From Candidatus Latescibacterota bacterium (GTDB lineage: Bacteria; Latescibacterota; UBA2968; UBA8231), in contig CBDFJF010000002.1 in assembly GCA_965248265.1 (NCBI GenBank), forward strand, positions 2,190,699-2,254,698: a DNA stretch of 64,000 nt. The letters are read 5' to 3'. The position numbers and the translations under genes were made by a program. The notes under the pieces were generated by a model. That model was not told the origin of the DNA. It saw nothing but the letters and a program-made list of their open reading frames with translations, and ran no database searches. This document shows positions 18,826 through 39,907 of the stretch, one piece after another. The stretch's first letter is position 1. Every line of letters starts with the position of its first letter.

Positions 18826-20463
18826 TCAAGCGCCGGCGACGTGCAGTTGGACGCCGTCCACGAGAATGGGCGTCTGCATCGACTCGTCCCGCCTGCTCAG
18901 CTTGAGCTCGAGCGTGTTCCCGCCGCGCCGGACCTGGGACGGGTCCAGTCCGCACTCCAGCCATCCACCTCCCTGCGCCGTCCTTGCGACGGACTGGACC
19001 TCCTCGAGGGGCCGGTTGTTCAAAGCCACATTCAGCTCGTCGCCGTCGGTGAGATCCCACAGGTGCAGACGGAATCGCAGCCTCTGCGGATCCGCCGACG
19101 ACAGATCGTCACCCACCTGGAACGACAGCTCGACCGGGCGCCCCGGCGTCAGCCCGACGTTTTCTGCGGTCTCGAACCGCCCGCGTTCGCCCGTGACCTC
19201 GTCTCCGAGAAACCGGTCGACCCCGAAGAGCTTCTCCTTGCCCGCCATCGTCTCGGGATCGCCGATCTCGAACCAGGTCTCGGGCACGCCGAGGCCCGGA
19301 TTGAAAACGTAAACACCATCGGCACCGTCGTTGAAGACGTTCGTCGCCACCGCCCGCCACACCGCCGGCCGGCCCTCCCACTCGTTGAAGACGACGATGT
19401 ATGTGGGCTTGCCGAGGCGCTCTGGCTGGCCGCCGTAGAGCGTCTTGAGCCACGAACTGAAGGCCCTGTGCTCCCCAGCGCCCAGCGCCAGGTAGACCCA
19501 CTGGCCCCAGAAGGCCCACTGCAGGCAGGGGTAGACCGGTACTTCGTGTCGGTGTCCGAAGTCGATGATATCGCGGAACGAGTCGCACATCGGTGAATCC
19601 TCGTTGCCGCCCGGCATCAGCTTATCGATCAGATTCTCGCCCAGCCAGGTCTCCAGGTCGACGCCGACGAACAGCGAGTCCTCGAGTGTGGCCGGCGTGT
19701 GTGCTGCCAGCAGCAGCGGCCGGCCTCTTCTGGCGCCGACCTCGTCGGCCATCCGGCGAATGCGGCGCACGAAGTCGTTCATCACTTCCACGTGCTCCTC
19801 GCTCACCGGCAGACCCTCGCGCGACTCGCGGAAGTACGGGTGGTACTTGAAAAATTCCATGGCGATGACGTCGACGTCGTAGTTCTCGGCCACTTCCTCG
19901 ATGACGGCGAAGTAGTGATCCCGCACCTCCTTGGCGCCGTAGTCGAGGCCCGACCACGCCTCGCCGGACTCGAAGTCATCCAGCTCGCCCATCATGCATT
20001 CGGGATGCTCGCGCTTGAACGGGGCGAGACCGTAGGAAGTCCAGCGTCTCGAACCCGGGGCGTAGGAGTCGTGGATGTCGTTCATGCGCAGCGACCAGCC
20101 GAACTCCATGCCGTGCTCGCGGCTGAAGTCCTGCTGCACCTGCACCGTATCCTTGCCGTACTGGTCGATGAGCTCCTGCGGCATTCCCCTGCCGATGAAA
20201 CCGCCCAGTTTCGTGTGGTGGGAGAACGTCAGACCCGCCATGCAGCTGCAGAACCAGTTGCTGTCCACCTGGGAGCCGATCAGCGGCGTGCTTCGCGCCT
20301 GCAGGAAGTCACCCATAAGCTCCCCGCTGGTGCGCACCGTCAGGCCCTCGGCGACGTCGTGTTCGCTCTCGGCGCCGTCACGCGCGTAGATGGCATCGTC
20401 GCCGTCGTTGTTGTAGATGATCCGCCGGCGTCTCCAGCGCGCTGCCCTTCGAGCTTCGTCCAC
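18826..20463 (-). CDS. hypothetical protein, possibly glycosidase-like (N-terminal RIIYNNDGDD motif, C-terminal beta-sandwich-like tail)
   Basis: 545-aa ORF with coherent high-GC codon usage; no family recognised with confidence. Confidence 0.45.
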   Translation of the reverse strand: MDEARRAARWRRRRIIYNNDGDDAIYARDGAESEHDVAEGLTVRTSGELMGDFLQARSTPLIGSQVDSNWFCSCMAGLTFSHHTKLGGFIGRGMPQELIDQYGKDTVQVQQDFSREHGMEFGWSLRMNDIHDSYAPGSRRWTSYGLAPFKREHPECMMGELDDFESGEAWSGLDYGAKEVRDHYFAVIEEVAENYDVDVIAMEFFKYHPYFRESREGLPVSEEHVEVMNDFVRRIRRMADEVGARRGRPLLLAAHTPATLEDSLFVGVDLETWLGENLIDKLMPGGNEDSPMCDSFRDIIDFGHRHEVPVYPCLQWAFWGQWVYLALGAGEHRAFSSWLKTLYGGQPERLGKPTYIVVFNEWEGRPAVWRAVATNVFNDGADGVYVFNPGLGVPETWFEIGDPETMAGKEKLFGVDRFLGDEVTGERGRFETAENVGLTPGRPVELSFQVGDDLSSADPQRLRFRLHLWDLTDGDELNVALNNRPLEEVQSVARTAQGGGWLECGLDPSQVRRGGNTLELKLSRRDESMQTPILVDGVQLHVAGA

Positions 20464-20557
20464 GACTCAGCCTTTCTGCATTTCTATGCGTGGCGTGTCA
20501 AAATCCGCCATGGTCAGTTCAAATCGCGCCAGTAGTGCTCGAGCTCGACGGCTGCCG

Positions 20558-20781
20558 TCACCAGTCCACGACGGCACCGTCGTCTCCGCTGTACGATTCC
20601 GGATTTGCCCCGTTATCCTCATCGCCGTTCCGCAGTGCGTCGTCGAGATAGTCGTCGTCGAGCTCGACACCCAGCCCCGGTCCGGTCGGCAGTTTGAGGA
20701 ATCCGTCCTCCACTGCGAACGGTTCCTTCAACACGCCTTCCCCCGGCCGCAATACGCCGGCTCCTTCCTGGATCAGGGAGT
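20558..20781 (-). pseudogene. C-terminal remnant of an enolase-superfamily (mandelate racemase/muconate lactonising enzyme/sugar-acid dehydratase) gene
   Basis: The minus frame reads ...LIQEGAGVLRPGEGVLKEPFAVEDGFLKLPTGPGLGVELDDDYLDDALRNG...*, the characteristic C-terminal tail of MR/MLE-family enzymes. Only ~75 codons remain. Upstream coding sequence ends abruptly at the R2 copy B boundary (20782). Confidence 0.55.
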
Positions 20782-21016
20782 ATAGGTCAAATAAGGAGTA
20801 TTATCGTTAGTCTATTTCGGTGGTGTTGTGTTGTCGAGGGGTATTCGAGGTGGTCTGACGGCCGAACGAGCAGGTGTCGGTCCCGAACTGGCGGGTGTGA
20901 GGGTCGATTGGTTGAGCAGGGGCGGCCGATTGGCCGATGTCGGTAAATGCAAGGGCGGATTCGGGCGCAGGGCTTGCTCAGCGGACGCCAACGCCCGACT
21001 ATCACCGCCCCTGTAT
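20782..21016 (+). repeat. Repeat family R2, copy B (235 bp)
   Basis: 234/235 identical to 13955-14189 (single T/C difference in gtgttgt[t/c]gagggg). Confidence 0.8.
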
Positions 21017-21287
21017 GATTGGCACGGGAAGCTCCACGACGTCGTCTACGGCGCCTGCTCGTTCCCGCCCTCGTGCCGGGTCGATGACCCGCAGACACAG
21101 GAAGGCGCCATTCTCGCGCACGCCGTTGTTCTCAGGGGAGCAACAAATCGGCAGCTACGAGCGCTTCTGGGACGGGCGCGACGACGCCCGCAGGCTGGCG
21201 CCTCCGGGTGTATACCTGTATCAACTGACCACGAAGACCCACGAGCGCCGCTTCGTCGAGACCGGAGAGGTGCGCCTGGTTTACTGA
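21017..21287 (+). pseudogene. C-terminal remnant of a T9SS type-A sorting (Por-secretion C-terminal) domain protein
   Basis: ...LFSGEQQIGSYERFWDGRDDARRLAPPGVYLYQLTTKTHERRFVETGEVRLVY* fits the consensus tail of T9SS CTDs (..G.H...WDG.D..G..L.SGVYFY.L.AG.FVETKKMVLLK). The upstream half of the domain is in a different frame (degenerate). The gene is truncated on its 5' side exactly at the R2 end. Confidence 0.55.
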
Positions 21288-21288
21288 C

Positions 21289-23274
21289 CTACCAGACGTG
21301 GACGCGGTGGCCCTCGTCGGGGAACCAGATGCCGTCGACGATGCCGGACAGTGCTACGGCCGCAGCGTAACCCAGGCCTAATCCGTAGAACAGGGGCTTA
21401 CCTCTCTGGTAAGCCTGCACCCCTCCGTAGCGCAGCAGGGCGGCCTTGATGACCCACACGAGGAGCAGGCTGAACCAGTAGTTTGCCGGGCCCGCGGCGT
21501 TCTGGAAGGCGAGACCGACTGGATGCAGCGGGAACCAGTGAAAGCGGCTGCGCAGATAGGCGAGAGCTCCGGCCTCTGACATGCCCGCCACCCACACGCC
21601 CCACTTGCCGATGTCGAACACCCTGGGATGCTGCACCAGGTTGGCAGTCTGTGGGTAGACGTTGAAAGCGTGGATCAGGTGGACGGCGCCCCCCTGGTCG
21701 TAGGCGACTTCGATGCTGGCCCAGGCCGCCACCAGGCAGCCGATCGTGAAGGCGATGAGGACGACGGCGCAGACGCGGCCGCGTTGCCGGCGCAGCGAGA
21801 ATATGCGCAGGTGGTGGGGGATCGCGGGCCAGGCCGGAAGGCGGATGTTGCCGAAGAAGGCCTGGCTCGTGAACAGCTTGAACGCCACCACGTTCTTCGT
21901 CGATAGGATGCTGGAGCCGACCAGTTCGGTGATGAAGGAGCCGCCCTTCATGTTGGCCCAGCTCGGCATCAGGTAGGGGAAGCCCGTGGCGGCGATCAGC
22001 TTGACCGTGACGAAAAACGTCATCGCCATGAGCAGGAACGTGCACACGGCTAGGGGCACCGTCGCCCCGAGGCTGACGCCGAAGCCGATGACGTAAACGG
22101 CTGACAACGTCATTCCGATGAAAGCAAGCCGATACATTCCGACCTGTCCGGCATCGCCGGTGCCGCCCCTGACCTGTCGCCAGACCTGGCCGAGATGGCG
22201 TCGCGCCAGCCATACCGACCAGATGGCGATGAGGACGATGGCGCCGAAACTCTCCAGATGCAGGATGTCGGAACTGATCAAGCGCTGGCCGGAAGCGCCG
22301 ACGCTGACCCCGAATTGATCCATGGCCCCCAACTTGAAGACGGAGAGCAGGTAGAAGAGGATGATGCTGCCCAGGATGTCGAGCGGGCACAGGTAGGTCA
22401 CCGCCAGCACAAGGGGCAGGATGCGGATGGTCAACGCCGGAAAGGGCTGCGGCAAGGGGATGGTGTAGCGCTCGCGGAAGACCTCCACCATGGGCGCGCC
22501 CGGGCTGAAATAGGTGGCGATGTTGTAGAGCAACGGCAGGAAGACGATGCCGAAGCCGGCCCAGAACAGACTGGAGCGGAACAGCTCCGGCATGCGCCGG
22601 GGACCGTCGAAGCCGCGCGTCAGTTCGAGGGGCATCTGAGCCAGTGGAAAGGTGAGCTTCTCGTTGTCCACCCACTGGCGGTGGAAGAGGATCATCAGAC
22701 AGAGTCCGAACACGACCATGGCCAGCGAAGCTCCGCCCCACTGCGCGATGATGCCGATCCACACGTCCCACGGAATTGAAGCGCCATCCGGCAGGCCCAG
22801 CCACAGGGGATCGATGACGCGTGGCTCGGGCCCGGGAAAGGCGTTCCACGGCATGAAGGGGACGATGAGGGTGTCCCACTGGTTCTCCGGCGTCGGCATG
22901 AAGGACGGCGCGCCCAGTATGGCGACCCAGTAGTCGCTCCACCCCCACATCGGCAGCGCCCCGACGATCCAGGTCATCGAGAACACGGTGAGCAGCTCGC
23001 CGCGACTCAGGGCCACGCGCGGCCACACCCGTTTGAGGGCCACGTTGAAGAACAGCCACAGCACGAAGGGGATGACGGCCACCATCGGGTACTGCGACTG
23101 CACGAGGTTGATCCCCATGAACAGGATCAGGTAATAGAACCAGACTGCGATGGTAACGGCCCCGACGAGGACTCCGCGCCAGGTGATCGTCAGCTTGTCG
23201 TCTTCGGCCGGTAAGTCAGACCCCCGACTCGCGTGGGGCTGGGTTACGTCAGCTGCTTGAGCGGGGTCGGGCAA
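21289..23274 (-). CDS. uncharacterised polytopic membrane protein (~14 TM), paralog 1 of a two-member family in this window
   Basis: 661 aa, highly hydrophobic with many predicted TM helices. It shares conserved blocks with 31916..33832, e.g. TPENQWDTLIVPFMPW versus TPENNWETLIHPHIPTW, VALSRGELLTVFSMTWIVGALP versus LALKREELALIFVMMLVSASIP, and similar C-terminal tails. The start appears to be TTG (no in-frame ATG before the first TM helix). The 553-aa alternate-frame ORF 21398..23059 is a GC artifact. Confidence 0.6.
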   Translation of the reverse strand: MPDPAQAADVTQPHASRGSDLPAEDDKLTITWRGVLVGAVTIAVWFYYLILFMGINLVQSQYPMVAVIPFVLWLFFNVALKRVWPRVALSRGELLTVFSMTWIVGALPMWGWSDYWVAILGAPSFMPTPENQWDTLIVPFMPWNAFPGPEPRVIDPLWLGLPDGASIPWDVWIGIIAQWGGASLAMVVFGLCLMILFHRQWVDNEKLTFPLAQMPLELTRGFDGPRRMPELFRSSLFWAGFGIVFLPLLYNIATYFSPGAPMVEVFRERYTIPLPQPFPALTIRILPLVLAVTYLCPLDILGSIILFYLLSVFKLGAMDQFGVSVGASGQRLISSDILHLESFGAIVLIAIWSVWLARRHLGQVWRQVRGGTGDAGQVGMYRLAFIGMTLSAVYVIGFGVSLGATVPLAVCTFLLMAMTFFVTVKLIAATGFPYLMPSWANMKGGSFITELVGSSILSTKNVVAFKLFTSQAFFGNIRLPAWPAIPHHLRIFSLRRQRGRVCAVVLIAFTIGCLVAAWASIEVAYDQGGAVHLIHAFNVYPQTANLVQHPRVFDIGKWGVWVAGMSEAGALAYLRSRFHWFPLHPVGLAFQNAAGPANYWFSLLLVWVIKAALLRYGGVQAYQRGKPLFYGLGLGYAAAVALSGIVDGIWFPDEGHRVHVW

Positions 23275-23284
23275 GCGCGTTCAG

Positions 23285-23536
23285 CTACTCGAAGAAGGCT
23301 TCGTCGTGTGGACGCACGTCCACGGCATGGCGCAGCGGCGGCTGAGCGGCCGCTTGTACGGTGACGTTGGCGGCTTCGAGTGGCCGGCCCGAATCCACAG
23401 AGATGACGCGGCCTGCGATGCGCCCACCATCAGGGGGGGAGGCCTCCGTCTCAACGGGCGGTTCGGCTGACGCCGCCACAACGCTGAGCACGAGGACGGC
23501 GGCGGCGCCGCCGCGGATGGCTACAGCGGTCACCAT
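23285..23536 (-). CDS. small secreted protein with CarboxypepD_reg-like N-terminal strand; possibly the 5' remnant of a larger (TonB-dependent-receptor-like) gene
   Basis: MVTAVAIRGGAAAVLVLSVVAASA (signal peptide) ...GGRIAGRVISVDSGRPLEAANVTV... then a stop 8 nt before the membrane-protein start. It starts 3 nt after the amidohydrolase stop. Confidence 0.35.
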   Translation of the reverse strand: MVTAVAIRGGAAAVLVLSVVAASAEPPVETEASPPDGGRIAGRVISVDSGRPLEAANVTVQAAAQPPLRHAVDVRPHDEAFFE

Positions 23537-23538
23537 CG

Positions 23539-24807
23539 TCACTGCAAGGCGCAATTGTACAGCTTCGCGGGGTTATCGCGGAAGGCCGCGCGCGCCACAT
23601 CCAGGGCGACGGACTCCGACAGAGATCCTTCCTCTATCATCTCCGCCAGGACGTGAGCGAAATTCCACCGCGCCATCTTCAGGTGGCCGTAGACGGCTTC
23701 CAGATGCTGCAGGTCGTCGCCGAAGGCGATGATCTTGTTGCAGGGGACCATGCGCAGCCACTCGCGCAGATCGGCGCGGGCGCCGATGGGGGAGATGATG
23801 TGGATCCACGACATGTTCAAATAGACATTGGGAAAGGTCTTACCGAGGACGGCCCCCTCGCGCAGGTAGGGATAGCCGGCGTGCGACAGGTCGAAGCGAG
23901 CCTCGCGGAAGGTCGACATGAGCTCCGTCAGCGGTGCTGGACTACATCCTTCCATGCCGACGAAACTCGAGGCTCTCATACCCTGGTGAAACTGGACAGC
24001 GAGCCCGACTTCGGATGCCGCCCGGCAACACTCGAAGACGAGGTAATCCTCGAGCAGCGCGCCCTGAGGCGAATTGAGGCCGTCGTAGTCGTCGCGCATG
24101 AAGCGGTCGAATATCGCAGCCGCCTCCGCCGGGTCACGTCGCTGGAAATCCATGCGCCGATGGTAAGACTGAGAAAGCTTCACACCTGCCGCTTCGGCCT
24201 GCGCCCAGCTCTGGCAGGTCCGTGCGATCAAGTCGACGAGTCCCGGGAGGTCGGACACCGTGGCATCGTAGTCCTTCTCGATGCCGTGTATGTCTGCGGC
24301 CGAGTTCAGCATGCTGAAGCGGTTCAGGCGCGGCAGCGGCAGGAAGAATTCGCGATCCACCTCGACGAGGTCGTTCATGTTGACGACGGAGCGCTCGATA
24401 TTGCTGCGGCGCTTCAGCACGTCGGTGTAGAGCCCGGGCTGAGCCCGCTGACGCAGGGCTTCGTTGATCGGCTCGATTGTGCCGGCGCTCAGTCCGTCGA
24501 AGCCGAGGAGGTCCCGCACGCCTTCCACGATGGCTTGAGAGTAGCCCGTCAGCCGGATCGACTTCCAGAACTCGGAGAAGATCTCCCAACGCTGAGCCAG
24601 CGGCAGGCCCGGCTGCAAGGCCTGCTCTATCTGCTCCTCACTCATGCCGGCACAACGCAGGTCCGCCACCGGATAGGCGTGCTCGAAGTACTTGAGAATG
24701 TCGGGCTCGAGCTTCAGGTACGCTGCCTCCGGCATCATGTGGGAGTGAGAGTTGATGCAGGGGATCTTGCGAATCTCGTCGAACAGCTCGCTGCGCAATG
24801 GACTCAT
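23539..24807 (-). CDS. amidohydrolase-family TIM-barrel metal-dependent hydrolase (uronate-isomerase-like)
   Basis: 422 aa. N-terminal KIPCINSHSHM metal-binding His pair and overall layout as in amidohydrolase_2/UxaC-like enzymes. Confidence 0.65.
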   Translation of the reverse strand: MSPLRSELFDEIRKIPCINSHSHMMPEAAYLKLEPDILKYFEHAYPVADLRCAGMSEEQIEQALQPGLPLAQRWEIFSEFWKSIRLTGYSQAIVEGVRDLLGFDGLSAGTIEPINEALRQRAQPGLYTDVLKRRSNIERSVVNMNDLVEVDREFFLPLPRLNRFSMLNSAADIHGIEKDYDATVSDLPGLVDLIARTCQSWAQAEAAGVKLSQSYHRRMDFQRRDPAEAAAIFDRFMRDDYDGLNSPQGALLEDYLVFECCRAASEVGLAVQFHQGMRASSFVGMEGCSPAPLTELMSTFREARFDLSHAGYPYLREGAVLGKTFPNVYLNMSWIHIISPIGARADLREWLRMVPCNKIIAFGDDLQHLEAVYGHLKMARWNFAHVLAEMIEEGSLSESVALDVARAAFRDNPAKLYNCALQ

Positions 24808-25020
24808 CTTAGCGGTTGACTCCTGTCTGTGACCGGCTCTGGACGAGGTCGGGACGGCCGTGCGTGCATAACGAATTGATTTTATTCAGCATGCGCAAGT
24901 GCGATCGCCGGATTGCCGGACCGGGCACCGTCCTGATTACAACGCCGCCGGTGACACTTTTGCGCTTGGGAAGTGTCGCAATAGGGACCGCGACAATACC
25001 TTCTAAGAGGAGACACTACG

Positions 25021-25881
25021 ATGAAGACGACACTCTGTGCAATCGGCGCTTTGCTGGCCGCCACGGCGGGTTTCGCCGAGCCCGTCGACACGCAGTTCAA
25101 GTTCGACCGCCCGGCCGCCATCGAGTGGGTGACGGGAGAGCGCGTTGAGATCGAGTGGAATGAGGTAATCGACTCCCGCTGTGCCATCGGCGCGACCTGC
25201 GTGTGGGAAGGTCAGGTGACTGTGTCCATCGACGTCGTCGTCGACGGAGTCCGCAACGAGGACGTCGAGATCACCCTCCACGGTGAGGAGTTCGAGCGCG
25301 CCGTGGCCACGGTCGAAGGATTTCGGATTCAGCTGGCCGCCGTCGGTCCGTATCCCGTTCTCGACGTCGAGACCGAGCGCTCCCGCTACGTGGCGACCGT
25401 CGTCGTGTCTCCGGTGACCCCGACGGAGGAACTTCACGGAGTGGCCGCCCTCAACACGGAGTGGCATCTCGAGGCATTCGGCCGAATCGGAGCGGAGGAG
25501 CCGACCCTGCCCGGCACGGATGTCACGATCAACTTCGACGTCTCCGTGGAGGGTGTGGGGTCCGCGTGGGGGACCGGAGGCTGCAACGGGTTCACGGGTA
25601 CGGTCCAGGCGGCCCCGATCGGCGCCATCGCGCTCAGCGATCTGGGATTCACCGACATGGCGTGCGGCGATCCGGCCGGCGTCATGGAGCAGGAAGACCG
25701 CTTCTTCACCGAGCTCCCCAATGTCATCGGCTTCACCATGGACGAGGCCCGCCTGGTCCTGCCCTTCGCGGGCGCTGACGACGTGGTCGGCACCATGATC
25801 TTCAGCAGAATGACCGCTCCGACGGCTGTCGAGTCCGCTAGCTGGGGGCAGGTCAAGAAGCTGGATCGACTCGACCGGTGA
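25021..25881 (+). CDS. secreted DUF4377 + META/HslJ-domain protein
   Basis: Signal peptide MKTTLCAIGALLAATAGFA. The C-terminal half has META-domain hallmarks (W.L....G......VT..F......G..GCNGF.G.......I..LG.T.MAC). Preceded by a GAGGAG RBS. Confidence 0.65.
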   Translation: MKTTLCAIGALLAATAGFAEPVDTQFKFDRPAAIEWVTGERVEIEWNEVIDSRCAIGATCVWEGQVTVSIDVVVDGVRNEDVEITLHGEEFERAVATVEGFRIQLAAVGPYPVLDVETERSRYVATVVVSPVTPTEELHGVAALNTEWHLEAFGRIGAEEPTLPGTDVTINFDVSVEGVGSAWGTGGCNGFTGTVQAAPIGAIALSDLGFTDMACGDPAGVMEQEDRFFTELPNVIGFTMDEARLVLPFAGADDVVGTMIFSRMTAPTAVESASWGQVKKLDRLDR

Positions 25882-26636
25882 GGACGACGGGGATCCTCAT
25901 AGCAGTCCTGCTGCAGGCGGGTGCCCCCGTAGAAGCCGAGCGCAATCCGGCAGCCGAGGGGTTCGATCAGATTGGCTCGGACGCCCGCGCGATCGAAGTC
26001 GCCGACGCCGTGATGGAACGGCTGGGCGGCCGCCCCAACTGGGACAACACCCGCTACATCGCCTGGCGCTTCTTCGGTCGCCGGTTCCACGTGTGGGACA
26101 AATGGACGGGCGACCTGCGCTACGAGGCAGAGGACGGGCACGTCGTCCTCATGAACATCCACTCGCGGCAGGGCAAAGCCTGGGAGGCAGGCCAGCCCGT
26201 CACCGATCCGGATTCAACCGCCGCTCGGATCGAGGCGGGCTACCGGGCCTGGATCAACGACAGCTACTGGCTGGTGATGCCGTACAAGCTGAAGGATACC
26301 GGCGTCACACTGAAGTACAAGGGCGTTGGAGAAACCGAAGCCGGCGAGCCCTCGGACATCCTCGAGCTGACTTTCACCGACGTCGGGGTGACACCGCAGA
26401 ACAAATACGACGTCTACGTCGACCGGGAAGAGCGCCTCGTGCGCCAATGGGCTTTCTACGCCGATGCGGACGATCAGGATCCGCGCTTCACCAGTCCCTG
26501 GTCGAACTGGCGTCAATACGGAGACATCTGGCTGGCTGACGACCCCGGCCGCTACCAGCACACGGACGTGGCTGTGTACGACGAGCTGCCGCGCGCACTA
26601 TTCGAGGACCCCAAAGCCCGCTACCCGCGAAAATGA
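25878..26636 (+). CDS. hypothetical secreted protein
   Basis: A GTG start overlaps the upstream stop (GTGA). Signal-peptide-like MRTTGILIAVLLQAGAPVEA. No family recognised. Confidence 0.5.
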   Translation: MRTTGILIAVLLQAGAPVEAERNPAAEGFDQIGSDARAIEVADAVMERLGGRPNWDNTRYIAWRFFGRRFHVWDKWTGDLRYEAEDGHVVLMNIHSRQGKAWEAGQPVTDPDSTAARIEAGYRAWINDSYWLVMPYKLKDTGVTLKYKGVGETEAGEPSDILELTFTDVGVTPQNKYDVYVDREERLVRQWAFYADADDQDPRFTSPWSNWRQYGDIWLADDPGRYQHTDVAVYDELPRALFEDPKARYPRK

Positions 26637-26676
26637 CCGCGGTCGCCATCGCGGTGCCGGGTTCAGCGAACCGCTT

Positions 26677-27402
26677 TTAGCGGACGGCTCCTTTGCCGTA
26701 TCGGCAAAACCCCTCAGCGAAAGTGCACTCCTTCATGCCCGCCGTGATCTGCGCCTCCAGGGCGCGGTAGCGGGCCAGGACCTCGTACTGCGTCGGCAGC
26801 GCCGGCTGCGAGGCCAGCGCCTTCATGGCCTCGATCTTGCGGTCCATGGTGGTGCCGATGTCGACGTAGAAGTCGGGCAGGAACTTGGTCACGGGGCTGG
26901 CCCCCAGCTGGGTCTCATAACAGACGAATTCCGCCACGGGGCAGGGGTCGTGCTCCGTGTCGATGCCGGGAACGTCCGTATGCCGCGCTGCCCACAGCAC
27001 TCCCTGTGCCGTTTCGACGTGGTCTGGATGCAGGAAGTCGTCGATCCAGTGGCAGAGGATCATATCGGGCCGGAAAGCCCGCATCGCGTCGAGGACCTCG
27101 ATGCGTCGCTCCGGCCCCAGCAGCAGCGGTCCGTCGCCGTAATCGAAGCAGTCGATGGAGGCCCCCAGGATGCCGGCAGCCTTTTCCATCTCGGCTTTGC
27201 GGATCGCCTTGATCTCGTCTACCGACGGAGGCGGAGTTTGCGCCCAGAGTGCCGGCGATTCGAGCAGCTCGCCGTAGGTCAGGTCGTGGATGTGCACGGC
27301 GGCGCCGGCGTCGCTGAAGCGGGCGATCGTCCCCCCGGCGCGTGAACAAAAATCAGCTGCGTGGGCGCTGAACACGAGCACCCTCTCGCGGTCCAAGAAC
27401 AT
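26677..27402 (-). CDS. PIG-L/LmbE family N-acetylglucosaminyl deacetylase
   Basis: MFLDRERVLVFSAHAADFCSRAGGTIA... and the HPDH motif. Start taken at the internal ATG (27402) rather than the track start 27459. Confidence 0.7.
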   Translation of the reverse strand: MFLDRERVLVFSAHAADFCSRAGGTIARFSDAGAAVHIHDLTYGELLESPALWAQTPPPSVDEIKAIRKAEMEKAAGILGASIDCFDYGDGPLLLGPERRIEVLDAMRAFRPDMILCHWIDDFLHPDHVETAQGVLWAARHTDVPGIDTEHDPCPVAEFVCYETQLGASPVTKFLPDFYVDIGTTMDRKIEAMKALASQPALPTQYEVLARYRALEAQITAGMKECTFAEGFCRYGKGAVR

Positions 27403-27483
27403 GGCGAAGCTCCTGTGGAATTCTCGCAGGACACATGTCCTGCTGATCGGGACAGGCAAGATGTGACACAGGCCGCAGGCGGG

Positions 27484-28011
27484 TCAATCGCCCGGCAGTT
27501 CGATTCCGAGCGCGGTCAGCTGTTCCTCCACCTGCCGAGCCCAGCCGCGGTTGGCTGCCGGACTCGCCGGAGAGGGATGCAGGATGCCGCCGACCTCGAC
27601 GTCGCCGACCACGTTCCGGGCGCGGATCTCGCCGAATTTGCCGACGCCGAGCACGTGTGAAGGCCGCACGAACTCGACGAGGGCGCAGAGCGTGCGGTCA
27701 CAGACTTCGAACAGGGGATCCCGCTCCGTCACGGGCAGCTTGTCCGGGGTGCGGTTGCGGCCTGAGTCTTCCAGAAAGGCGAGGGGGCAGTAGTTCCACA
27801 TGAAAAAACGCGCAAAGAACGATTCGGGCGACCCGAAGCGATCGCAGGCCCAACCCCACAGCCGTTGCCCGCTCACCTCGCTGCGCCCACAATCGAAACC
27901 CTCGATCGGGCGTTTGGGGTGCTCCGATCGAGGCCGGCGCACGCCATCGCGGATGCCGAGCCAGTCCCGCACGAGCCCGACCTCACCGAAAGGCACGCCC
28001 GTCTGAGCCAT
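27484..28011 (-). CDS. SMUG1-family uracil-DNA glycosylase homolog, apparently lacking the N-terminal GMNPGP catalytic motif
   Basis: MAQTGVPFGEVGLVRDWLGI...HPKRPIEGFDCGRSEVSGQRLWGW...FFMWNYCPLAF...GRNRTP...HPSPASPAANRGW aligns almost residue-by-residue with eukaryotic/bacterial SMUG1 from its MAQTGVPFGEV block to the HPSPRNPQANKGW block. There is an in-frame TGA 19 codons upstream of the ATG and no alternative start, so the region that would carry the essential Asn motif is absent. Confidence 0.6.
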   Translation of the reverse strand: MAQTGVPFGEVGLVRDWLGIRDGVRRPRSEHPKRPIEGFDCGRSEVSGQRLWGWACDRFGSPESFFARFFMWNYCPLAFLEDSGRNRTPDKLPVTERDPLFEVCDRTLCALVEFVRPSHVLGVGKFGEIRARNVVGDVEVGGILHPSPASPAANRGWARQVEEQLTALGIELPGD

Positions 28012-28364
28012 CGGTCCAACCTCGCACGTCTCTGTGCCAGCGCGCGCACGTGCTCGATGATTGTATCAGTTAGCACACGTCGGTGTGTATGACTCGTCAC
28101 GCTGAGGCAATCCCCCCTCCAACGATCGTTTCCCGGGCCCGCCGTGATCTATGGGCTCACTTCATCCGCAGAATCCGGCTTGCGGGCGCCACGTCCAGCA
28201 GGCCGCCTGCTCTGAGCAGCCTGTGTTGCGTGCGATAACTGTCTCGTGGAGTCGTTCGTCTCGTCAGCCGACCTGTTGGGGATGCGAGACCTTCGTGTGA
28301 CGGCTCTCGTCGTGCCACCTCTGTGCGACTGCGCCCTGTGACCAATCCGGGACGCCAACGTCGC

Positions 28365-28540
28365 GGCGCGTTTCGTGGGAAAGATTCGGGTAGTCGAGCC
28401 GGCGGGTGGCCGTCAGATTCCCGGTTGCACCAACGAGACACCGTCGCGCTCGAGGGCCGTGCCGTGCACGAGCTCTGCCGAATGCAGCCCACCTTCTCGG
28501 TCGAGACGAACGACGCAGGCTGTCCCCTCGAATGAGACTC
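28365..28540. repeat. Repeat family R1, copy 3 (3' coding end + 3' flank of intact heparinase-like gene)
   Basis: Homologous to 13757-13960 (~80%), and to the core of 6572-6648. Confidence 0.6.
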
Positions 28541-30677
28541 CCTCATGTTCATACGTTCCGCGAGCGGGTGGCGAGCAGTAGAGATCGACGCCGCCATCGG
28601 GAAGGGTGATCGACAACCAGCCGCTGTCCGTCTCCGACAGTGCCTGCACGTGCGGCAAGGAGCCCTTGGCTGCGCAGGCTTCCGAATCGGGGCGCATCGG
28701 CCACAACACAGTCTGAATCATCGTGGGCGTGGGGCCAGACCGCCGGTAGATGACGCACGGCGCCGGCACAGGTCGACCGGCTCCACCAGGCCCGCAGTAC
28801 CAACCCTGCAGGTCCGGTTCCTCGCGACCTTCAACGACTTCAAGCTCCACGTATTCGGGAAGGGCTGGTAGAAAGGCGAGATTGGCTCCTTGTGAGGTTG
28901 TCCGCACCGTGCGTGCGGCCGCGTCAACGGCCACGTCGATCGGCACGAGGTGGAAGAGTTGCTCATAGGTATGGTCGCCGCTTCCCGTAAAGCGGTCGGT
29001 GATTATCCAGTACTCGGGTCCACCGGATTGGCGGGCTTTGACGAAAGCGATGCTGCGGTGATGGACGACCGAATTGCCCGCCGGAGTGCCGTATCCCTGC
29101 TCGTACTCGCCGGCGAGGTAGTCACAGGTTGTGCTGCTGTGCCAGGGATTCGTCAACGGCTCATCAGTCGTTTTCGGTCCGGCAAGCGACCGCACCTGGC
29201 TCTTGCCGTCGACGATGACCGTGTTGTGCGCGCTCGAGCCGTTGAAGAATTCTGTCCACGCCACGTCCCTGGGGTCTTTGCTGTAGCTATGGACGCCGAG
29301 ATCCTCTACGAGCGAGCGCCCGTAGGCCACCACCTCGACGGCCAGTTTACCCTCATGTCCGTGAACGACGCCGAAAGGGCCGACGTCGAAGAAGAGATAG
29401 TTGGTATCAGCGGCCCAGCTCGAGCGCATGATGCCGACCCCAGCCCATGAGTACCAGAACGAGATGTGAGCCGGCGCTTTGCCTCGCTCCCCCGACGTGG
29501 CTACGAAGCGCAGATCGTCGCGCTGTTCGATTTCGGCCATGCGCCTGACATAGGGGAATCCGGATCCGCGCCTGCTGTCCCCCGTCCACACGTAGTTGCC
29601 GTCCGGCTTGGAGGTGAAGGCGAGGAACTCGGCCCGCATTACCATTGCTTGGGACAGGCCCTCCGGCACGGCGAGACCGTTGCCTCTGGTCAGTTTGAGC
29701 GCTTGAAAGACATGCAAGGATGCCCCGGCGACATACCCGTATGAGTTTTCCGTGGATGAGCCGTCGGGGTAGGTCCCGGCGTTGAGATAGTAGTCGGTGA
29801 TCTCCCGGAGTCCGCGTTCGCGCCAACGTGGTGCAGCCTCGAATTCCGGCATGCCGACTCCGATCCATAGCAGCCCGAGGCCGTTGCACATCAGCTGATT
29901 TCCCGGTGCACCGATCACCCCCTCCATCGACTCGGCGCACGGGCCTGAGAGGAAATACTGGATCGTGCAGAAATCGCGCGGCGCCAACTCGTCCCAGGAG
30001 AGGATGAAGGGCATCACCTGCTGGTAGTGGATTGCCAGTTGCATGTCGGGAAGCCACATCCAGTCGCTCTTGCCCGGCAGGTAGACGACATAGTCGGTCG
30101 CCGTCCGGACCAGCTTGGCGACATAGCGCTCGTCGTCCGTGAGCCACCAGGCCTGCGCCAGGGCGCGCTGGAAATACTGGTAGACGAGACTCATCGGCCA
30201 CCGCCTCCCGGCGCCACCCGGCGGTGGATGGTGCTCCCAATCCCACTCCGGTCCGAGATCCTGGACGCCGTCCTCGGGGTGGTAAGGGATGAATACCTTG
30301 TTATCCAACAGCATATCAGCGTGATCGAGCAACGTGAAGTCCGAGCGCTGGAGACCTTCGCTCCGGTCCCATATAGAGCCGCGCTCATTGCTGATATATG
30401 GCCGCACTGCATCCCGATCACGCCAAGTGATCGTGTCCGGGCGGCGGCTCAGGAAGTCCCAATCCGCGGAGCTCGCCTTGACATTCGCCTCGGCTCCCCA
30501 GTCGAGGACGGGTTGCTCTCTCGCGCGGTAGTGCTGGAGGTAGGCCGCTTCGGCGGCTGCATAGTCACCGGCCCCGACCGCTGCGGATACGTCCTCGAGT
30601 CCGGGTGAGTCGAGTCGCATCTGGCCGAACATAGCGACGATGAGAGCATCATCGATTTTGGAGAAAGGCTCTGTCAT
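28413..30677 (-). CDS. heparinase II/III-like family polysaccharide lyase (alpha/alpha-toroid + beta-sandwich)
   Basis: 754 aa. C-terminal domain carries the Hepar_II_III signature GVVHGHEGKLAVEV (H-x-H-x-D/E). Paralog of 48277..50562. Confidence 0.7.
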   Translation of the reverse strand: MTEPFSKIDDALIVAMFGQMRLDSPGLEDVSAAVGAGDYAAAEAAYLQHYRAREQPVLDWGAEANVKASSADWDFLSRRPDTITWRDRDAVRPYISNERGSIWDRSEGLQRSDFTLLDHADMLLDNKVFIPYHPEDGVQDLGPEWDWEHHPPPGGAGRRWPMSLVYQYFQRALAQAWWLTDDERYVAKLVRTATDYVVYLPGKSDWMWLPDMQLAIHYQQVMPFILSWDELAPRDFCTIQYFLSGPCAESMEGVIGAPGNQLMCNGLGLLWIGVGMPEFEAAPRWRERGLREITDYYLNAGTYPDGSSTENSYGYVAGASLHVFQALKLTRGNGLAVPEGLSQAMVMRAEFLAFTSKPDGNYVWTGDSRRGSGFPYVRRMAEIEQRDDLRFVATSGERGKAPAHISFWYSWAGVGIMRSSWAADTNYLFFDVGPFGVVHGHEGKLAVEVVAYGRSLVEDLGVHSYSKDPRDVAWTEFFNGSSAHNTVIVDGKSQVRSLAGPKTTDEPLTNPWHSSTTCDYLAGEYEQGYGTPAGNSVVHHRSIAFVKARQSGGPEYWIITDRFTGSGDHTYEQLFHLVPIDVAVDAAARTVRTTSQGANLAFLPALPEYVELEVVEGREEPDLQGWYCGPGGAGRPVPAPCVIYRRSGPTPTMIQTVLWPMRPDSEACAAKGSLPHVQALSETDSGWLSITLPDGGVDLYCSPPARGTYEHEGVSFEGTACVVRLDREGGLHSAELVHGTALERDGVSLVQPGI

Positions 30678-30924
30678 CGGGTACCGGTCAGGAGATGCTT
30701 TGCCTGAGGGGTTTGAAGCGGATAGTATGATTCCTGGCAGGGGCTTTGTCGAGTGTGATTGGCGCGGTGGCAGATGGAGTTGAGCAGCTCGCTGATTGAC
30801 TGTTTACAGGTGTTTGTTATCAAAACATCGATTGAAGTATGTTGTGATGTATGCGAACCACCTTGGCCATCGACGGTCTGTTCCGGCAGGGCACCCGCCG
30901 AGTAGAAGCAGGAGGAATCAGGTG

Positions 30925-31860
30925 ATGCCCATCTCGATGACGAAGCAGCAGGAGAGAGATTTCGACGAGGAGGGATTCATCATTCTCGAGGACTTTTTGT
31001 CAGAGGACGAGCTGGGCCGACTGTTGTCGGCGGTGGACGAGGTTGTGGCCAAGGGGCGCAAGGCGAAGAGCATGGGTCCCGACGACCCTTTCGCCATTCG
31101 CAACCTGCTATCTCACCACGACGCCTTCCTCGATCTGGTCGACCACCCCCGAATTCTGCCACTCGTCGTCGACGCGATCGGATGGAACATCCAGGTTCGA
31201 ACCACTCACCTCGACTATCGGCCACCGTACCCCGAAAACATCCCGCCTGGCGATATCGGCAGCCCTGACGGAGCGGACAGTCAGGCCGGCTACGCCAATG
31301 TCAACTGGCACCCGGACCTCTCCGGCGATTACTTCTTCGAGGCGCCTTCCCTCGACGGACGACTGCCCTTCATGGAGATCAAGGTATTCTACGTGCTGTC
31401 AGATCTCAGCGAATCGAACCGCGGCAACCTGTGGATGGTGCCGGGCAGCCACAAACGACCGCCGCAGGAACTGCGTGACGGGGACGGCAAGGTCGATCCG
31501 GCCGAAGCCGTGGAATTCAGGCTGTCGCCTGGCTCCGCCGTGCTCTGGCGCACCGCCACCTGGCACTGCGTCGGCCCGAATCTGTCGAATATGATCAGGA
31601 AGATCGTGCACGTGGGTTACCACTACCGCTGGCTCCGCCCCGCCGACTACATCGAGCAGGACCCGAAACTCCTGGAGCGCTGCACGCCGATCCGGCGCCA
31701 GCTGCTGGGCGCCCTGCCCGCGGGTGCCCGTCCGCTGGGCGACGACCCGGACATACAACCACATTCGATGTACTGGATCTCGAAAGATTGGGACGCTGTG
31801 CCGTTGAAGGCCTGGGCTGAGAAACAGGCGGGATTCAAGCAGCCAACGGAGCCCCTCTGA
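30925..31860 (+). CDS. phytanoyl-CoA dioxygenase (PhyH) family oxygenase
   Basis: MPISMTKQQERDFDEEGFIILEDFLSEDEL... ATG at 30925 with an AGGAGG RBS; the track start 30796 is rejected. Confidence 0.75.
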   Translation: MPISMTKQQERDFDEEGFIILEDFLSEDELGRLLSAVDEVVAKGRKAKSMGPDDPFAIRNLLSHHDAFLDLVDHPRILPLVVDAIGWNIQVRTTHLDYRPPYPENIPPGDIGSPDGADSQAGYANVNWHPDLSGDYFFEAPSLDGRLPFMEIKVFYVLSDLSESNRGNLWMVPGSHKRPPQELRDGDGKVDPAEAVEFRLSPGSAVLWRTATWHCVGPNLSNMIRKIVHVGYHYRWLRPADYIEQDPKLLERCTPIRRQLLGALPAGARPLGDDPDIQPHSMYWISKDWDAVPLKAWAEKQAGFKQPTEPL

Positions 31861-31915
31861 TTAGGGCCAAAGGCGCGTATGGTGGCTGCGAAGCGGATGG
31901 GTGGGTGGCACCTGC

Positions 31916-33832
31916 CTACCATCCCCCCAGCGGAGAATTGCCCTGGTGACCGGTGACGTAGTCGATGACGAGCCAGGTCCCCGACGTGACGAAGGCCCCC
32001 AGGATCATCCCCATGAAAAGGTACCGGCTGTGGCTGTAAAGATTGCCGCCGCCATACTTCAGCACCACTACCTTGGTGAGCCAGGCGATGAAGACGCTGA
32101 ACCACATGAACCCGGAGGTAAATACAGTTCCGCTGATGGCCAGACCGAGGGGATGAACCGGCCACCAGGTGACGCGCTGCTGGACGAACATCAACAACCA
32201 CATGACGCCGGCGCCGAATCCGGTAAACAGCCAACCTGCCGCCTCCGTCACCGAGGGCGTCTGGATCATGGCGGCGATGTAGGTCAGGGGAAAACTGGAG
32301 GAATGTTTCCAGAACCAGGGCGACAGGTTGATGCCGCCGCGCGTGTACGACAGGTGGATGACCATCCAACCGGAGGCGCACAGCGTAACGACGACAGCCA
32401 GCATCATCCCCAAGAACGCCGCTCGCCGCTCTCTGCCGATGAACTCGGAGACCATCCTGAGTCCGTTGGCGGCTGCCGCCATCGGGAACGTGACGATGTC
32501 GGCCGTCCACGGATAGGTGTATGCCAGGCCGGTGAGGCCGGCGCCACCCAGCGTCGACGTGCCGAAGCTCGCCATGACAAAATCGGGAGCGATCAGCGGC
32601 GCTCGCAGCAGGGCGACCCCGGCCTCGACGACGATGCGTGTTATGGCCAGAAACAGCAACAACGCCACGGTGAGAAAAACCGGTACGACGAACAGCGGTA
32701 TGCCTGCCGCGTTGAGCCACAAGAGCATGACCGCCAGTCCGGCTAGCAGGCCGAACACGGCGGCCCTGTAAGACAGGATTTCGTCGTCATCCCTCACGCT
32801 GTCGTCACCGGTGAACGCCTTGCGAAGGACATCTCGCAGGTGGGATCGCGCGTTCCACAAGACGAAAAGGGCGAACATCAACATGGCGCCCAGAGCCTGA
32901 TGGGTGAGAAAGGGGGAGCTCGGGTTGCTGAACCATCCGAGTCGCTCGCTGGTCTGGAAACCGACGACGTTGAACAACTCCTGTTCCAGCAAGGTCAGCC
33001 AATAGAAGAGCCAGATTCCCAGCGCGAGAGACTGGTGGATGAAGTAGGAGAAGCCGGTCAACGGGAAGGAAAAGTGCAAGGGGACATTGCGGTCGCGAAA
33101 AACATCCAGGGACGTGGTGAGGTGAACGCTCGGCACGGACGGGAAGTAGCTGCTCAACCCGTTGAGTGTTCCCACGAGGACCGGCAGGGCAAAACCGACC
33201 CACATGACGGTGTTGCGGAAAAACCGCGATTCGCCTGAGGCCATGCGCGCCGGACCGACCAGCTCCATCGCCGTGAGCATCATCGGGTAGGCGAGACGCT
33301 CGCGTTCCATCCATTGCCGGCGCACGATCACGACTACACAGATGGACACGAGATAGAGGGCCAGCAGGAACAGGAGCCACCATGAGAGCGACTCGAGCCA
33401 ACCCCCCCAGGGAATCGATTCTCCGAGTGGCATACCTTCGTAGAATCCCCTGATCAATTGCGGGTCGCTCGGCGCTATCCAGGTGGGAATGTGCGGGTGG
33501 ATGAGGGTCTCCCAGTTGTTCTCAGGGGTCGCGTAGTAGAAAGCGCCAGTGATCATCGGCAGCAGATGCTGGACCAGGCCGAACGTCGGAATCGAAGCGG
33601 AGACGAGCATCATCACGAAGATCAAGGCCAGCTCTTCGCGTTTCAGAGCCAGCTGCCGCGACGCGCGGCGGACGAGCAGGTTGGCCGCCACGAGATAGAA
33701 GAGCAGGAAGAACGCCACCGGGCTGGCGAAGCTGGATGCCATGAAGGTGCCGCGGATGATGTTGCGGGCGTAGGGCGTTCCGGCCCCTATCAGGAGGCTG
33801 AGCAGAGAGCCGATCAGGAGTGCTCTGAGCAT
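31916..33832 (-). CDS. uncharacterised polytopic membrane protein, paralog 2
   Basis: Start MLRALLIGSLLSLLIGAG at ~33832, preceded by GGAGGA that overlaps the stop of the upstream small ORF. Homologous to 21289..23274 along its whole length. The 357-aa alternate-frame ORF 31647..32720 is a GC artifact. Confidence 0.6.
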   Translation of the reverse strand: MLRALLIGSLLSLLIGAGTPYARNIIRGTFMASSFASPVAFFLLFYLVAANLLVRRASRQLALKREELALIFVMMLVSASIPTFGLVQHLLPMITGAFYYATPENNWETLIHPHIPTWIAPSDPQLIRGFYEGMPLGESIPWGGWLESLSWWLLFLLALYLVSICVVVIVRRQWMERERLAYPMMLTAMELVGPARMASGESRFFRNTVMWVGFALPVLVGTLNGLSSYFPSVPSVHLTTSLDVFRDRNVPLHFSFPLTGFSYFIHQSLALGIWLFYWLTLLEQELFNVVGFQTSERLGWFSNPSSPFLTHQALGAMLMFALFVLWNARSHLRDVLRKAFTGDDSVRDDDEILSYRAAVFGLLAGLAVMLLWLNAAGIPLFVVPVFLTVALLLFLAITRIVVEAGVALLRAPLIAPDFVMASFGTSTLGGAGLTGLAYTYPWTADIVTFPMAAAANGLRMVSEFIGRERRAAFLGMMLAVVVTLCASGWMVIHLSYTRGGINLSPWFWKHSSSFPLTYIAAMIQTPSVTEAAGWLFTGFGAGVMWLLMFVQQRVTWWPVHPLGLAISGTVFTSGFMWFSVFIAWLTKVVVLKYGGGNLYSHSRYLFMGMILGAFVTSGTWLVIDYVTGHQGNSPLGGW

Positions 33833-33848
33833 GGGGCTCAGGTCCTCC

Positions 33849-34073
33849 TCACATGATGAATTCGTGCACGTCGTCGAGCCAGGCGAATCCCTCCGCATTG
33901 TCCAACTTGTAGGCTCCACCCATCAAAAAGATCCGATCTTCGGTGGCGGCTGCCGGCATCCAGGCTTTCTTGACCAGCCCCCCTTGCGCGGTACCTACTT
34001 TGGTCTCCAAACTTTGGTTACCGGGCTCGAGACCAAGCAAAGGATGCTGGCCGCTCATGACGTTTGCGAACAT
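33849..34073 (-). CDS. small ORF (74 aa) translationally coupled to membrane-protein paralog 2
   Basis: MFANVMSGQHPLLGLEPG...EDRIFLMGGAYKLDNAEGFAWLDDVHEFIM*. Its TGA stop is embedded in the RBS of the downstream membrane gene. No signal peptide and no recognised family. Coding status is uncertain. Confidence 0.3.
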   Translation of the reverse strand: MFANVMSGQHPLLGLEPGNQSLETKVGTAQGGLVKKAWMPAAATEDRIFLMGGAYKLDNAEGFAWLDDVHEFIM

Positions 34074-34165
34074 AACGATAGGCTTGGATGTGGACGAGCG
34101 TTTCTCTCAGGCACGGGGGCGCCCACAACCGCGTCGCGATCATCGAAAACAGGATCAGCTCTGCC

Positions 34166-35572: not shown

Positions 35573-35611
35573 CCGGAGCGGAGCCATTCGTATTCGTGTG
35601 AGGATCAAAAC

Positions 35612-39903: not shown

Positions 39904-39907
39904 CCAA

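Follow-up and report, generated by a model that had tools for sequence, protein, structure and literature searches.

Two large membrane proteins, here called P1 and P2, are encoded in a 64-kb stretch of the genome of a Candidatus Latescibacterota bacterium (contig CBDFJF010000002.1; the whole stretch of 64,000 nucleotides is referred to as the window), and each gene is preceded by a small open reading frame (ORF), named ORF1 and ORF2, respectively. Both proteins are made up of the Pfam pair DUF6785 and DUF6784, which, as judged from profile comparison and predicted structure, is a true, if remote, part of the oligopeptide transporter (OPT) superfamily, outside the Pfam OPT family. That P1 and P2 are OPT-superfamily transporters is, in our view, very probable. 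Their further reading as an OPT branch of inner-membrane secondary transporters that import carboxylate-bearing sugar products is the one that we slightly favour overall. The two small ORFs, which an earlier note on the same DNA had taken as candidate accessory genes, look like gene fragments, namely the debris of deletion or rearrangement.

The membership in the DUF6785/DUF6784 family is seen in both proteins at scores well above the Pfam gathering scores of 25 bits for DUF6785 and 26.4 bits for DUF6784. P1 matches DUF6785 (PF20581) with 272.6 bits over positions 2-498 of 498 (E-value 7.5e-81) and P2 with 423.7 bits over the full length (E 1e-126), and the C-terminal DUF6784 (PF20580) is matched with 77.5 bits (E 1e-21) in P1 and with 89.9 bits (E 1e-25) in P2. 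All 47 relatives in a P2-centred alignment of DUF6785 proteins (alignment A1) match DUF6785 as well. The earlier note could not place the two proteins in any family; they are not unplaceable, because the family has already been catalogued as a domain of this kind, of which both are canonical examples, and the fold and profile-profile comparisons described below add the link to the OPT/Yellow-Stripe-like (YSL) group. No NCBIfam family model matches P1 or P2, no paper mentioning DUF6785 or DUF6784 was found in the literature searched, and the relatives carry only the names 'hypothetical protein' or 'DUF6785 family protein' in their sources. Three invariant motifs, TPENxW, WWPxHPxG, and KxxxLxYGG, are specific to the family.

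P1 and P2 can be aligned over 593 residues at 27% identity (BLASTP, E 5e-51), which bears out, nearly end to end, the earlier description of two ORFs homologous over their full length; the motifs quoted for them at the time, TPENQW and TPENNW, are both found. A search with a hidden Markov model of the family picks out P1 and P2 and no further copy within the 64 kb, and on the basis of their sequences P1 and P2 are real paralogs. Both products occur verbatim in a public protein collection (P0121 for P1 and P0001 for P2), where they come from the same contig of 4.14 Mb. The maximal ORF of P2 extends over 31916..33919 on the reverse strand, with the ATG at 33832 giving 638 residues, and the G+C content of the window is about 62%. 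In agreement with the previous view of polytopic membrane proteins, AlphaFold2 (AF2) models of P1 and P2 contain about 14-17 membrane helices, with about 16-17 helical segments if short re-entrant ones are counted in, and a crude hydropathy scan finds 10-14 strongly hydrophobic segments; the topology used as the criterion for OPT/YSL proteins was 16 (occasionally 17) transmembrane segments. A comparison of the N-terminal with the C-terminal half gave no sequence-level signal of an internal repeat (hhalign E 0.15).

The link to the OPT superfamily comes from the fold and from the profiles. The AF2 model of P1, built from 54 sequences, reached a predicted local distance difference test (pLDDT) score of 90.7 and a predicted template modelling (pTM) score of 0.91, and that of P2, built from 47 sequences, 88.9 and 0.91. 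In Foldseek, the only significant matches were 7wsr and 7wst, both structures of HvYS1 (barley Yellow Stripe 1) from the YSL clade, with an E-value of 3e-6, a probability of 1.00, and template modelling (TM) scores of 0.63/0.67. The profiles were compared with 13 bacterial and archaeal proteins annotated as 'oligopeptide transporter, OPT family' in plasmid and chromid records, of which three were re-checked as PF03169 (E 1e-50 to 1e-124). The profile of alignment A1 aligned with this set in hhalign at a probability of 88.8%, an E-value of 2.5e-6, and a score of 59.7 over 438 collinear columns, and a 96-sequence profile including both paralog types at 94.6%, 6.6e-8, and 72.6 over 533 collinear columns, spanning positions 13-651 of the profile and 6-602 of the OPT set. 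In 22 controls, consisting of the reversal of either alignment and 20 column shuffles, the hhalign scores were 12-25 with E-values of 0.07-0.94.

The same alignments pair several conserved motifs of the two families. The N-terminal TxRAxxxG is set against ELTxRGxxxG of the OPT proteins, TPENxW against LENNxxQT, and RRQWxExERLxYP against PLRRxxVxxxLPYPEG, for which the HvYS1 counterpart of the LPYPEG segment is DYKLVYPSG at residues 193-201. The ERLxYP of DUF6785 is devoid of the S/E-G part of the OPT signature L-x-[YF]-P-[SE]-G, which follows transmembrane segment 3. When the A1 profile was aligned with a 45-residue fragment of HvYS1, RERLAYP was paired with DYKLVYP at a non-significant level (hhalign probability 0.3%), and a homolog search with this fragment found nothing.

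Several observations weigh against the OPT placement. Pfam OPT (PF03169) matches neither P1 nor P2 at E-values up to 1, nor any of the 47 aligned members at E-values up to 10; the OPT models of NCBIfam do not match P1 or P2 either. Among PDB sequences, HMMER searches returned no match for P2 (phmmer), one irrelevant match for the A1 profile (hmmsearch), and no link to HvYS1. A profile built from P1-type sequences only is weakly matched to the OPT set (hhalign E 0.005-0.02). The acidic motif QDLKTG of the OPT proteins, which, from YSL sequences and the four-residue spacing, we presume to contain Asp490 and Asp494 of HvYS1, two residues suggested to bind protons, is not clearly kept: hhalign pairs it with NGLK[LM], and ADIRTF, 11 residues earlier, looks closer. 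In addition, P2-type proteins have a near-invariant Asp in ADIRTF (D445 of P2 in the numbering of the 638-residue protein, approximately window 32498..32500), and in P1-type proteins the aligned stretch reads GNIR, where Asn stands in place of this Asp (N476 of P1, approximately window 21847..21849). If these positions are equivalent, ion coupling, and with it the coupling chemistry, may differ between the two paralog types. None of the sequence libraries consulted ties DUF6785/DUF6784 to OPT; the Pfam clan or TCDB records may already hold the link.

The coordinates of the two transporter genes and of the features around them are given in Table 1.

Table 1. Genes, gene remnants, and the ribosome-binding site discussed in the text (window positions).
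Feature	Position	Strand	Remarks
P1, DUF6785 + DUF6784 protein, predicted divergent OPT superfamily member	21289..23274	-	661 aa, TTG start
P2, DUF6785 + DUF6784 protein, predicted divergent OPT superfamily member	31916..33832	-	638 aa, ATG start
ORF1, orphan and probable fragment with signal-peptide-like start and a CarboxypepD_reg repeat of which about one third is present	23285..23536	-	83 aa, ATG at 23536
ORF2, apparent Kelch gene remnant	33849..34073	-	74 aa; remnant of last repeat at 33845..33978 (3' two-thirds)
GGAGGA ribosome-binding site of P2	33843..33848	-	10 nt upstream of ATG, directly after ORF2 TGA
Remnant of a gene for a secreted protein with C-terminal sorting-type domain, 51 codons from its 3' end	21132..21284	+	convergent, ends next to P1 stop
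Amidohydrolase_2-type TIM-barrel enzyme, uronate-isomerase-like	23539..24807	-	422 aa; same orientation as ORF1 and P1, immediately upstream of them
GH130/GH117/GH32-like five-bladed propeller	34088..35572	+	494 aa; divergent from P2; no evident signal peptide (by eye)
DHDPS-family enzyme, closest to 5-dehydro-4-deoxyglucarate dehydratase (KdgD)	35612..36550	+	312 aa
Heparinase II/III-like polysaccharide lyase	28413..30677	-	754 aa, between P1 and P2
GH156-like (exosialidase-like) protein	18826..20463	-	545 aa, downstream of P1 beyond the convergent remnant

A different view of the two loci, put forward in the earlier note, is that each membrane protein and a small accessory protein from the upstream ORF form a two-component permease system. 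The arrangement of the genes lends itself to this view: both ORFs lie on the strand of the transporter genes at gaps of 10 nt and 16 nt, the stop codon of ORF2 abuts the ribosome-binding site of P2, and ORF1 has a signal-peptide-like start and is called as a gene (P0241) by the source annotation. Of the gaps of under 15 nt that had been reported, that of ORF1 is thus correct and that of ORF2 is slightly too short. Likewise, ORF2 does have 74 residues and a TGA at the ribosome-binding site, but the TGA (33851..33849) abuts GGAGGA (33848..33843) rather than lying inside it. The identity and the distribution of the two ORFs speak against the accessory role, as described below. A scan for a sigma-70-like promoter upstream of P2 found none, a kind of scan that is uninformative for this lineage.

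ORF1 in its maximal form covers 23285..23554, starting from a TTG at 23554 and ending 10 nt before the TTG of P1. The signal-peptide-like start and first strands of a CarboxypepD_reg domain that had been recognised in it could be found again, though the match to the Pfam model, at positions 2-27 of 82, is below the cut-off (E 0.0064, 17.3 bits against 32.3 bits). With 27 of the 82 repeat positions, ORF1 therefore covers too little to form the domain. The product has one full-length match among 1.84 billion representative proteins searched with phmmer, which is ORF1 itself; the other 30 matches are proteins of 309-1754 residues that align with parts of residues 3-74, mostly about 20-65, and all four of those examined are tandem CarboxypepD_reg repeat proteins. 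No similarity to ORF1 was found upstream of the closest relatives of P1, the loci L083-L085 (82, 75, and 71% protein identity), where the nucleotide similarity ends within P1 at about 23208 and the upstream genes are all different. ORF1 is an orphan and probably a fragment, not a partner protein. We also considered ORF1 as the start of a SusC-type TonB-dependent receptor, with which it shares a signal-peptide-like start and the first CarboxypepD_reg strands. This was rejected, since SusC-type receptors have a Plug and a beta-barrel, neither of which is present in the 83 residues of ORF1, and the matches examined are surface proteins with tandem repeats, not TonB receptors.

ORF2 has no Pfam match, and its origin can be read from the locus L081, which carries the closest relative of P2 together with L082. 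Between residues 34-73 of ORF2 and the C-terminus of a 307-residue Kelch protein, whose gene at L081:7444-8367 is intact, the identity is 67.5% (tblastn, E 2.6e-16), and the DNA is 76% identical over 134 nt (blastn). About 44 codons are kept, the equivalent of the final repeat in the L081 Kelch protein, which is less than a multi-repeat propeller. In the alignment of the junction, the Kelch tail (33978..33845) is followed by 11 nt and then by the ATG of P2; at the matching junction, L081 (86% identity to P2) holds about 1.6 kb with a 520-residue gene that is not in this genome, in the gene order Kelch, 520-residue gene, and DUF6785 gene. ORF2 being a Kelch tail, the apparent overlap with the ribosome-binding site is therefore a deletion (or insertion) junction, and the ribosome-binding site of P2 is the one that precedes a different gene in L081.

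ORF1 and ORF2 are unrelated to each other, and tblastn searches with both against 85 related loci, namely the best 80, L081 and L082 as the closest to P2, and L083-L085 as the closest to P1, found no upstream match to either. The pairing of a small ORF with the membrane gene is thus not conserved in any of the loci, including the closest relatives at 71-86% identity, an outcome that is the second half of what the earlier note itself had named as evidence against its proposal. With ORF2 a cut-off Kelch 3' end and ORF1 having no full-length homolog in 1.84e9 proteins, the accessory-ORF model is refuted as a conserved system, and even a local partnership at these two loci seems barely credible to us. 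Both small ORFs are better treated as debris, and they should not be propagated in annotation as components of a system.

A third gene fragment, the convergent remnant at the 3' end of P1, supports a history of rearrangement at this place, so that three fragments surround the two transporter genes. The remnant is 57% identical to the convergent neighbour in L083 (tblastn, E 3.5e-13), in the C-terminal 51 residues only; this neighbour has 493 residues on record and is incomplete at the contig end. No other part of it was seen in the 825 nt of the gap at 20464..21288. Genes of mobile elements occur near the P2 orthologs, with an RVT_1 fragment at L081:17961-18425 and a Transposase_20 gene at L082:5488-6141. 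Between window positions 20001..45000 and L081, nucleotide synteny is limited to P2 and the 134-nt Kelch remnant, and between the same segment and L082 to the transporter gene. Upstream genes differ in every close relative of P1 and P2; in L082 (76% identity to P2), for example, a Metallophos and CBM9 gene takes this place. Collectively, the transporter loci are actively reshuffled.

The gene content of the window bears out the earlier statement that the permease-like proteins lie within a glycan-degrading region. Directly upstream of ORF1, the amidohydrolase matches Pfam Amidohydro_2 (E 2.5e-7) and the PDB sequences 2qpx (6.8e-8), 4i6v (2.7e-7), and the uronate isomerase 1j5s (2.5e-3), and its match to the NCBIfam glucuronate isomerase model (E 1.9e-4) is far below the cut-off. 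On the other side of P1, the GH156-like protein aligns over residues 115-283 with the exosialidase 6rzd of an uncultured bacterium (phmmer, E 6.5e-15) and has no Pfam match; two GFO/IDH/MocA oxidoreductase genes follow it. The polysaccharide lyase between the two transporter genes contains Hepar_II_III_N and Hepar_II_III_C of Pfam and matches a HepC-like NCBIfam model at an E-value of 3.8e-25, below the cut-off.

The gene divergent from P2 has neither a Pfam nor an NCBIfam match. A profile of its family (A4) reaches the PDB sequences 6n1a (1.8e-8), a GH130 1,2-beta-oligomannan phosphorylase (6.1e-5), and further GH130, GH117, and GH32 enzymes, so that the former label of GH43/130-like was a reasonable one. 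It is followed by the dehydratase gene, whose product matches Pfam DHDPS (E 1.1e-25) and, with scores under the respective cut-offs, KdgD models of NCBIfam (E 8e-29 and 1e-27). A second propeller gene at 46788..48272 on the reverse strand, 40% identical in its product, stands beside the second heparinase-like gene. Altogether, the window contains two heparinase II/III-like genes, two GH130-like genes, one GH156-like gene, and one KdgD-like gene, along with GH106, GH127, GH2, BNR_4, several GFO/IDH/MocA, and two PhyH genes. Members of the propeller family, which have about 400-510 residues with repeated S-x-D-G-I-x-W motifs, no Pfam or NCBIfam assignment, and no evident signal peptide, are also found around the two DUF6785 genes of L081 in three copies (860-2389, 5764-7221, and 18831-20024) and beside DUF6785 genes in L033 (2305-3831) and L065.

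Apart from P1 and P2, strongly polytopic proteins in the 64 kb are limited to a fusion of MFS and spermine synthase domains and, at 60.6 kb, one distant MFS-like protein, and P1 and P2 are therefore the obvious candidate permeases of the region. The fusion, a polytopic protein of 927 residues with a spermine/spermidine-synthase domain, is encoded at 37120..39903 on the forward strand, about 3.3 kb from P2. Fusions of MFS_1 and Spermine_synth (849-855 residues) are located near the P2 orthologs as well (L081:13221-15788 and L082:2139-4688), in neighbourhoods that are otherwise rearranged.

The family is large and occurs repeatedly within genomes. Among the candidates scored, 610 were relatives of P2 and 192 of P1, and at least 597 DUF6785 loci are present in species-representative genomes. 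The relatives with a taxonomic label belong mostly to Latescibacterota and Gemmatimonadota, and further ones to Planctomycetota, Poribacteria, Handelsmanbacteria, Armatimonadota, Omnitrophota, and Chloroflexota. Within the best 80 loci, six copies come from OZ220690.1, five from OZ242005.1, and four from each of two others, and a second DUF6785 copy is found in nine loci, mostly as a tandem pair. The genes of the tandem pairs (L002, L003, L006, L042, L044, L060, and others) are spaced by -4 to about 90 nt, which points to recent duplication or possibly to hetero-oligomeric pairs. Weak Pfam matches to UPF0182, an uncharacterised actinobacterial membrane family, were seen in seven of the 47 members of alignment A1 (best E 0.0054); these could be due to chance or to a further distant relative of the fold.

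The neighbourhoods of the relatives were examined with respect to the substrate. Near the P2 relatives, there are GH130-like genes, GH123, GH32, Amidohydro_2, AXE1, and a CBM9 protein, and the P1 relatives of L084 and L085 adjoin enzymes of the MR_MLE enolase superfamily. Sulfatase, aldo-keto reductase, MR_MLE, SDR, PhyH, GFO, or similar genes were found within 6 kb in 36 of the 80 loci, as opposed to peptidase clusters in nine, a contrast that is suggestive of a sugar or organic-acid context. The most common neighbours are large secreted FG-GAP/ASPIC/CHU_C proteins (30 of 80 loci; e.g., at L084:2250-7818), some combining FG-GAP and UnbV_ASPIC with FlgD_ig/CHU_C C-termini and others consisting of 900 residues with no Pfam match; they may perform an extracellular step that feeds the transporter. 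A subfamily of about 715 residues is repeatedly located beside a fusion of Peptidase_M28, MacB periplasmic core, and FtsX (about 1470-1620 residues) and beside a protein of about 520 residues with no known function, and its opposite flank is often occupied by an M42 aminopeptidase (L038, L043, L045, L046, L048, L061, L072, L074, and L076; also L013 and L015). This clade-specific module is unlike the context in the window.

A sugar-derived substrate for P1 and P2 is an evenly balanced proposition in our estimate, and several points count against it. The substrate class is taken solely from the gene neighbourhood, and the counts over the 80 loci have no background comparison, with glycan genes being abundant throughout these genomes. 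No conserved operon partner is found in the 80 loci, in which 153 operonic neighbours represent about 150 Pfam families; with neighbours so heterogeneous and no dominant partner, the DUF6785 family as a whole therefore probably has many substrates. Moreover, some clades adjoin peptidases, amidase, or sarcosine oxidase. These latter clades bring in a second explanation, in which P1 and P2 are OPT-superfamily importers of peptides or other nitrogenous carboxylates, such as oligopeptides, glutathione-like compounds, or metal chelates, and the glycan context is incidental. The substrates of all OPT members characterised are peptides, glutathione, folate, peptidoglycan fragments, or metal chelates, prokaryotic OPTs have mostly been inferred to be peptide transporters, and the DUF6785 subfamily next to the M28-MacB-FtsX fusion and M42, as well as loci with amidase, sarcosine oxidase, and GCV_T, fit such substrates. 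However, no peptidase gene neighbours P1 or P2 among the ORFs scanned, the immediate neighbours of both and of their closest relatives encode enzymes of sugars and sugar acids, and the peptidase clusters are the minority in the above 36 to 9 count. We consider the import of peptides to be unlikely for these two proteins, and the earlier suggestion of an oligosaccharide-type uptake role remains, in the form of uptake of sugar-derived compounds, the best reading of the catabolic neighbourhood.

A role other than import, as exporters, as flippases, or as membrane enzymes that have precursors of the envelope or of exopolysaccharides as substrates, could be suggested by loci that contain GT2 glycosyltransferases, a heptaprenyl-diphosphate-synthase component I, or SurA/PpiD-like peptidyl-prolyl isomerases, and by others with many secreted FG-GAP/ASPIC proteins. 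Against this, the sole fold match is a transporter, each characterised relative of which is an uptake symporter, and the neighbours in the window are catabolic rather than biosynthetic; a non-import role thus appears very improbable.

Under the preferred reading of P1 and P2 as importers of acidic sugar products, the two proteins would be inner-membrane secondary transporters of a deeply divergent, prokaryote-only branch of the OPT/YSL group (TC 2.A.67). In each protomer, a substrate-binding core domain would move like an elevator against a scaffold domain, as proposed for HvYS1, and a co-transported cation, probably H+, would provide the driving force. The imported compounds would be carboxylate-bearing sugar products freed by the neighbouring lyases and glycosidases, with uronates, unsaturated or sialic-type sugar acids, and short acidic oligosaccharides as candidates. 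Enzymes with no evident signal peptide might then process them, namely the uronate-isomerase-like enzyme at P1, the GH130-like propeller and the KdgD-like enzyme at P2, and the GFO/IDH/MocA oxidoreductases, and the small upstream ORFs would have no part in transport. What the data show is the membership of P1 and P2 in their family, the OPT fold, the homology to OPT in the profiles, the expansion of paralogs, and the neighbouring genes; the transport direction, the coupling ion, the elevator mechanism, and the substrate class are inferred.

The placement in the OPT/Yellow-Stripe group gives DUF6785/DUF6784 a testable mechanism, the cation-coupled elevator, and a structural template, and the expansion of paralogs beside sugar-acid and glycan genes in Latescibacterota and Gemmatimonadota is suggestive of an uptake route that has been overlooked in these abundant, uncultured degraders of polysaccharides. 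As a more tentative extension, which we would rate as somewhat doubtful, the DUF6785/DUF6784 proteins might be a large OPT clade, so far unrecognised, that has switched from peptides and metal chelates to acidic sugars and oligosaccharides. In Latescibacterota, Gemmatimonadota, Planctomycetota, and the uncultured phyla allied to them, the clade might thereby serve as a principal inner-membrane importer of glycan products, and the several paralogs of a genome (up to six) might each be tuned to a different polysaccharide-utilisation locus. If this were true, the known sugar transporter families would be joined by an elevator-type OPT fold, and hundreds of genes now called 'hypothetical' in carbon-cycling bacteria of the environment would gain a function. 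The placement is of use to studies on transporter evolution and on the carbon-cycling genomics of uncultured phyla.

Among the known systems, HvYS1 (PDB codes: 7WSR and 7WST) is similar to P1 and P2 in fold at a sequence identity of just 10-12%. Characterised OPT members are cation:solute uptake symporters (PMC3061005), and HvYS1 has been proposed to be a proton-coupled elevator (PMC9691689). Asp446, Asp490, and Asp494 are the proton sites proposed for it; its acidic residues of this kind are not clearly conserved in DUF6785, and its substrate, Fe(III)-phytosiderophore, is implausible for P1 and P2; HvYS1 is eukaryotic, whereas DUF6785 is prokaryotic. The prokaryotic OPT proteins of PF03169, such as WIK44202.1 of P. 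aeruginosa and WP_010904125.1 of Halobacterium, are comparable in size (about 560-680 residues), show profile-profile homology over nearly the full length, and share several collinear N- and C-terminal motifs. In contrast to them, DUF6785/DUF6784 has its own invariant motifs, extra extracytoplasmic loops, and a separate Pfam pair, is centred on Latescibacterota, Gemmatimonadota, and Planctomycetota with a strong expansion of paralogs, and has neighbours mainly from the catabolism of sugars and organic acids rather than peptidases. As of a 2011 review, there was no biochemical characterisation of prokaryotic OPTs (PMC3061005). In the same work (Gomolplitinant & Saier 2011), the OPT subcluster 4C was predicted to transport beta-xylan oligosaccharides from genome context alone (PMC3061005). 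This provides a precedent for an oligosaccharide assignment made from context only; the members of 4C are canonical PF03169 proteins, and the likeness is one by description.

With regard to physiology, published reconstructions have Latescibacteria degrade uronic-acid-rich as well as sulfated polymers of algae, and the uptake of uronates is assumed to take place through an ExuT-type MFS transporter (PMC4454575). In current metabolic reconstructions of these phyla, a single ExuT-like MFS transporter accounts for this uptake. The ExuT-type hexuronate transporters of the FCB group would have the same physiological role as that proposed here for P1 and P2, the uptake of uronates and unsaturated uronate products, with an unrelated fold, so that the resemblance between the two systems is a functional analogy.

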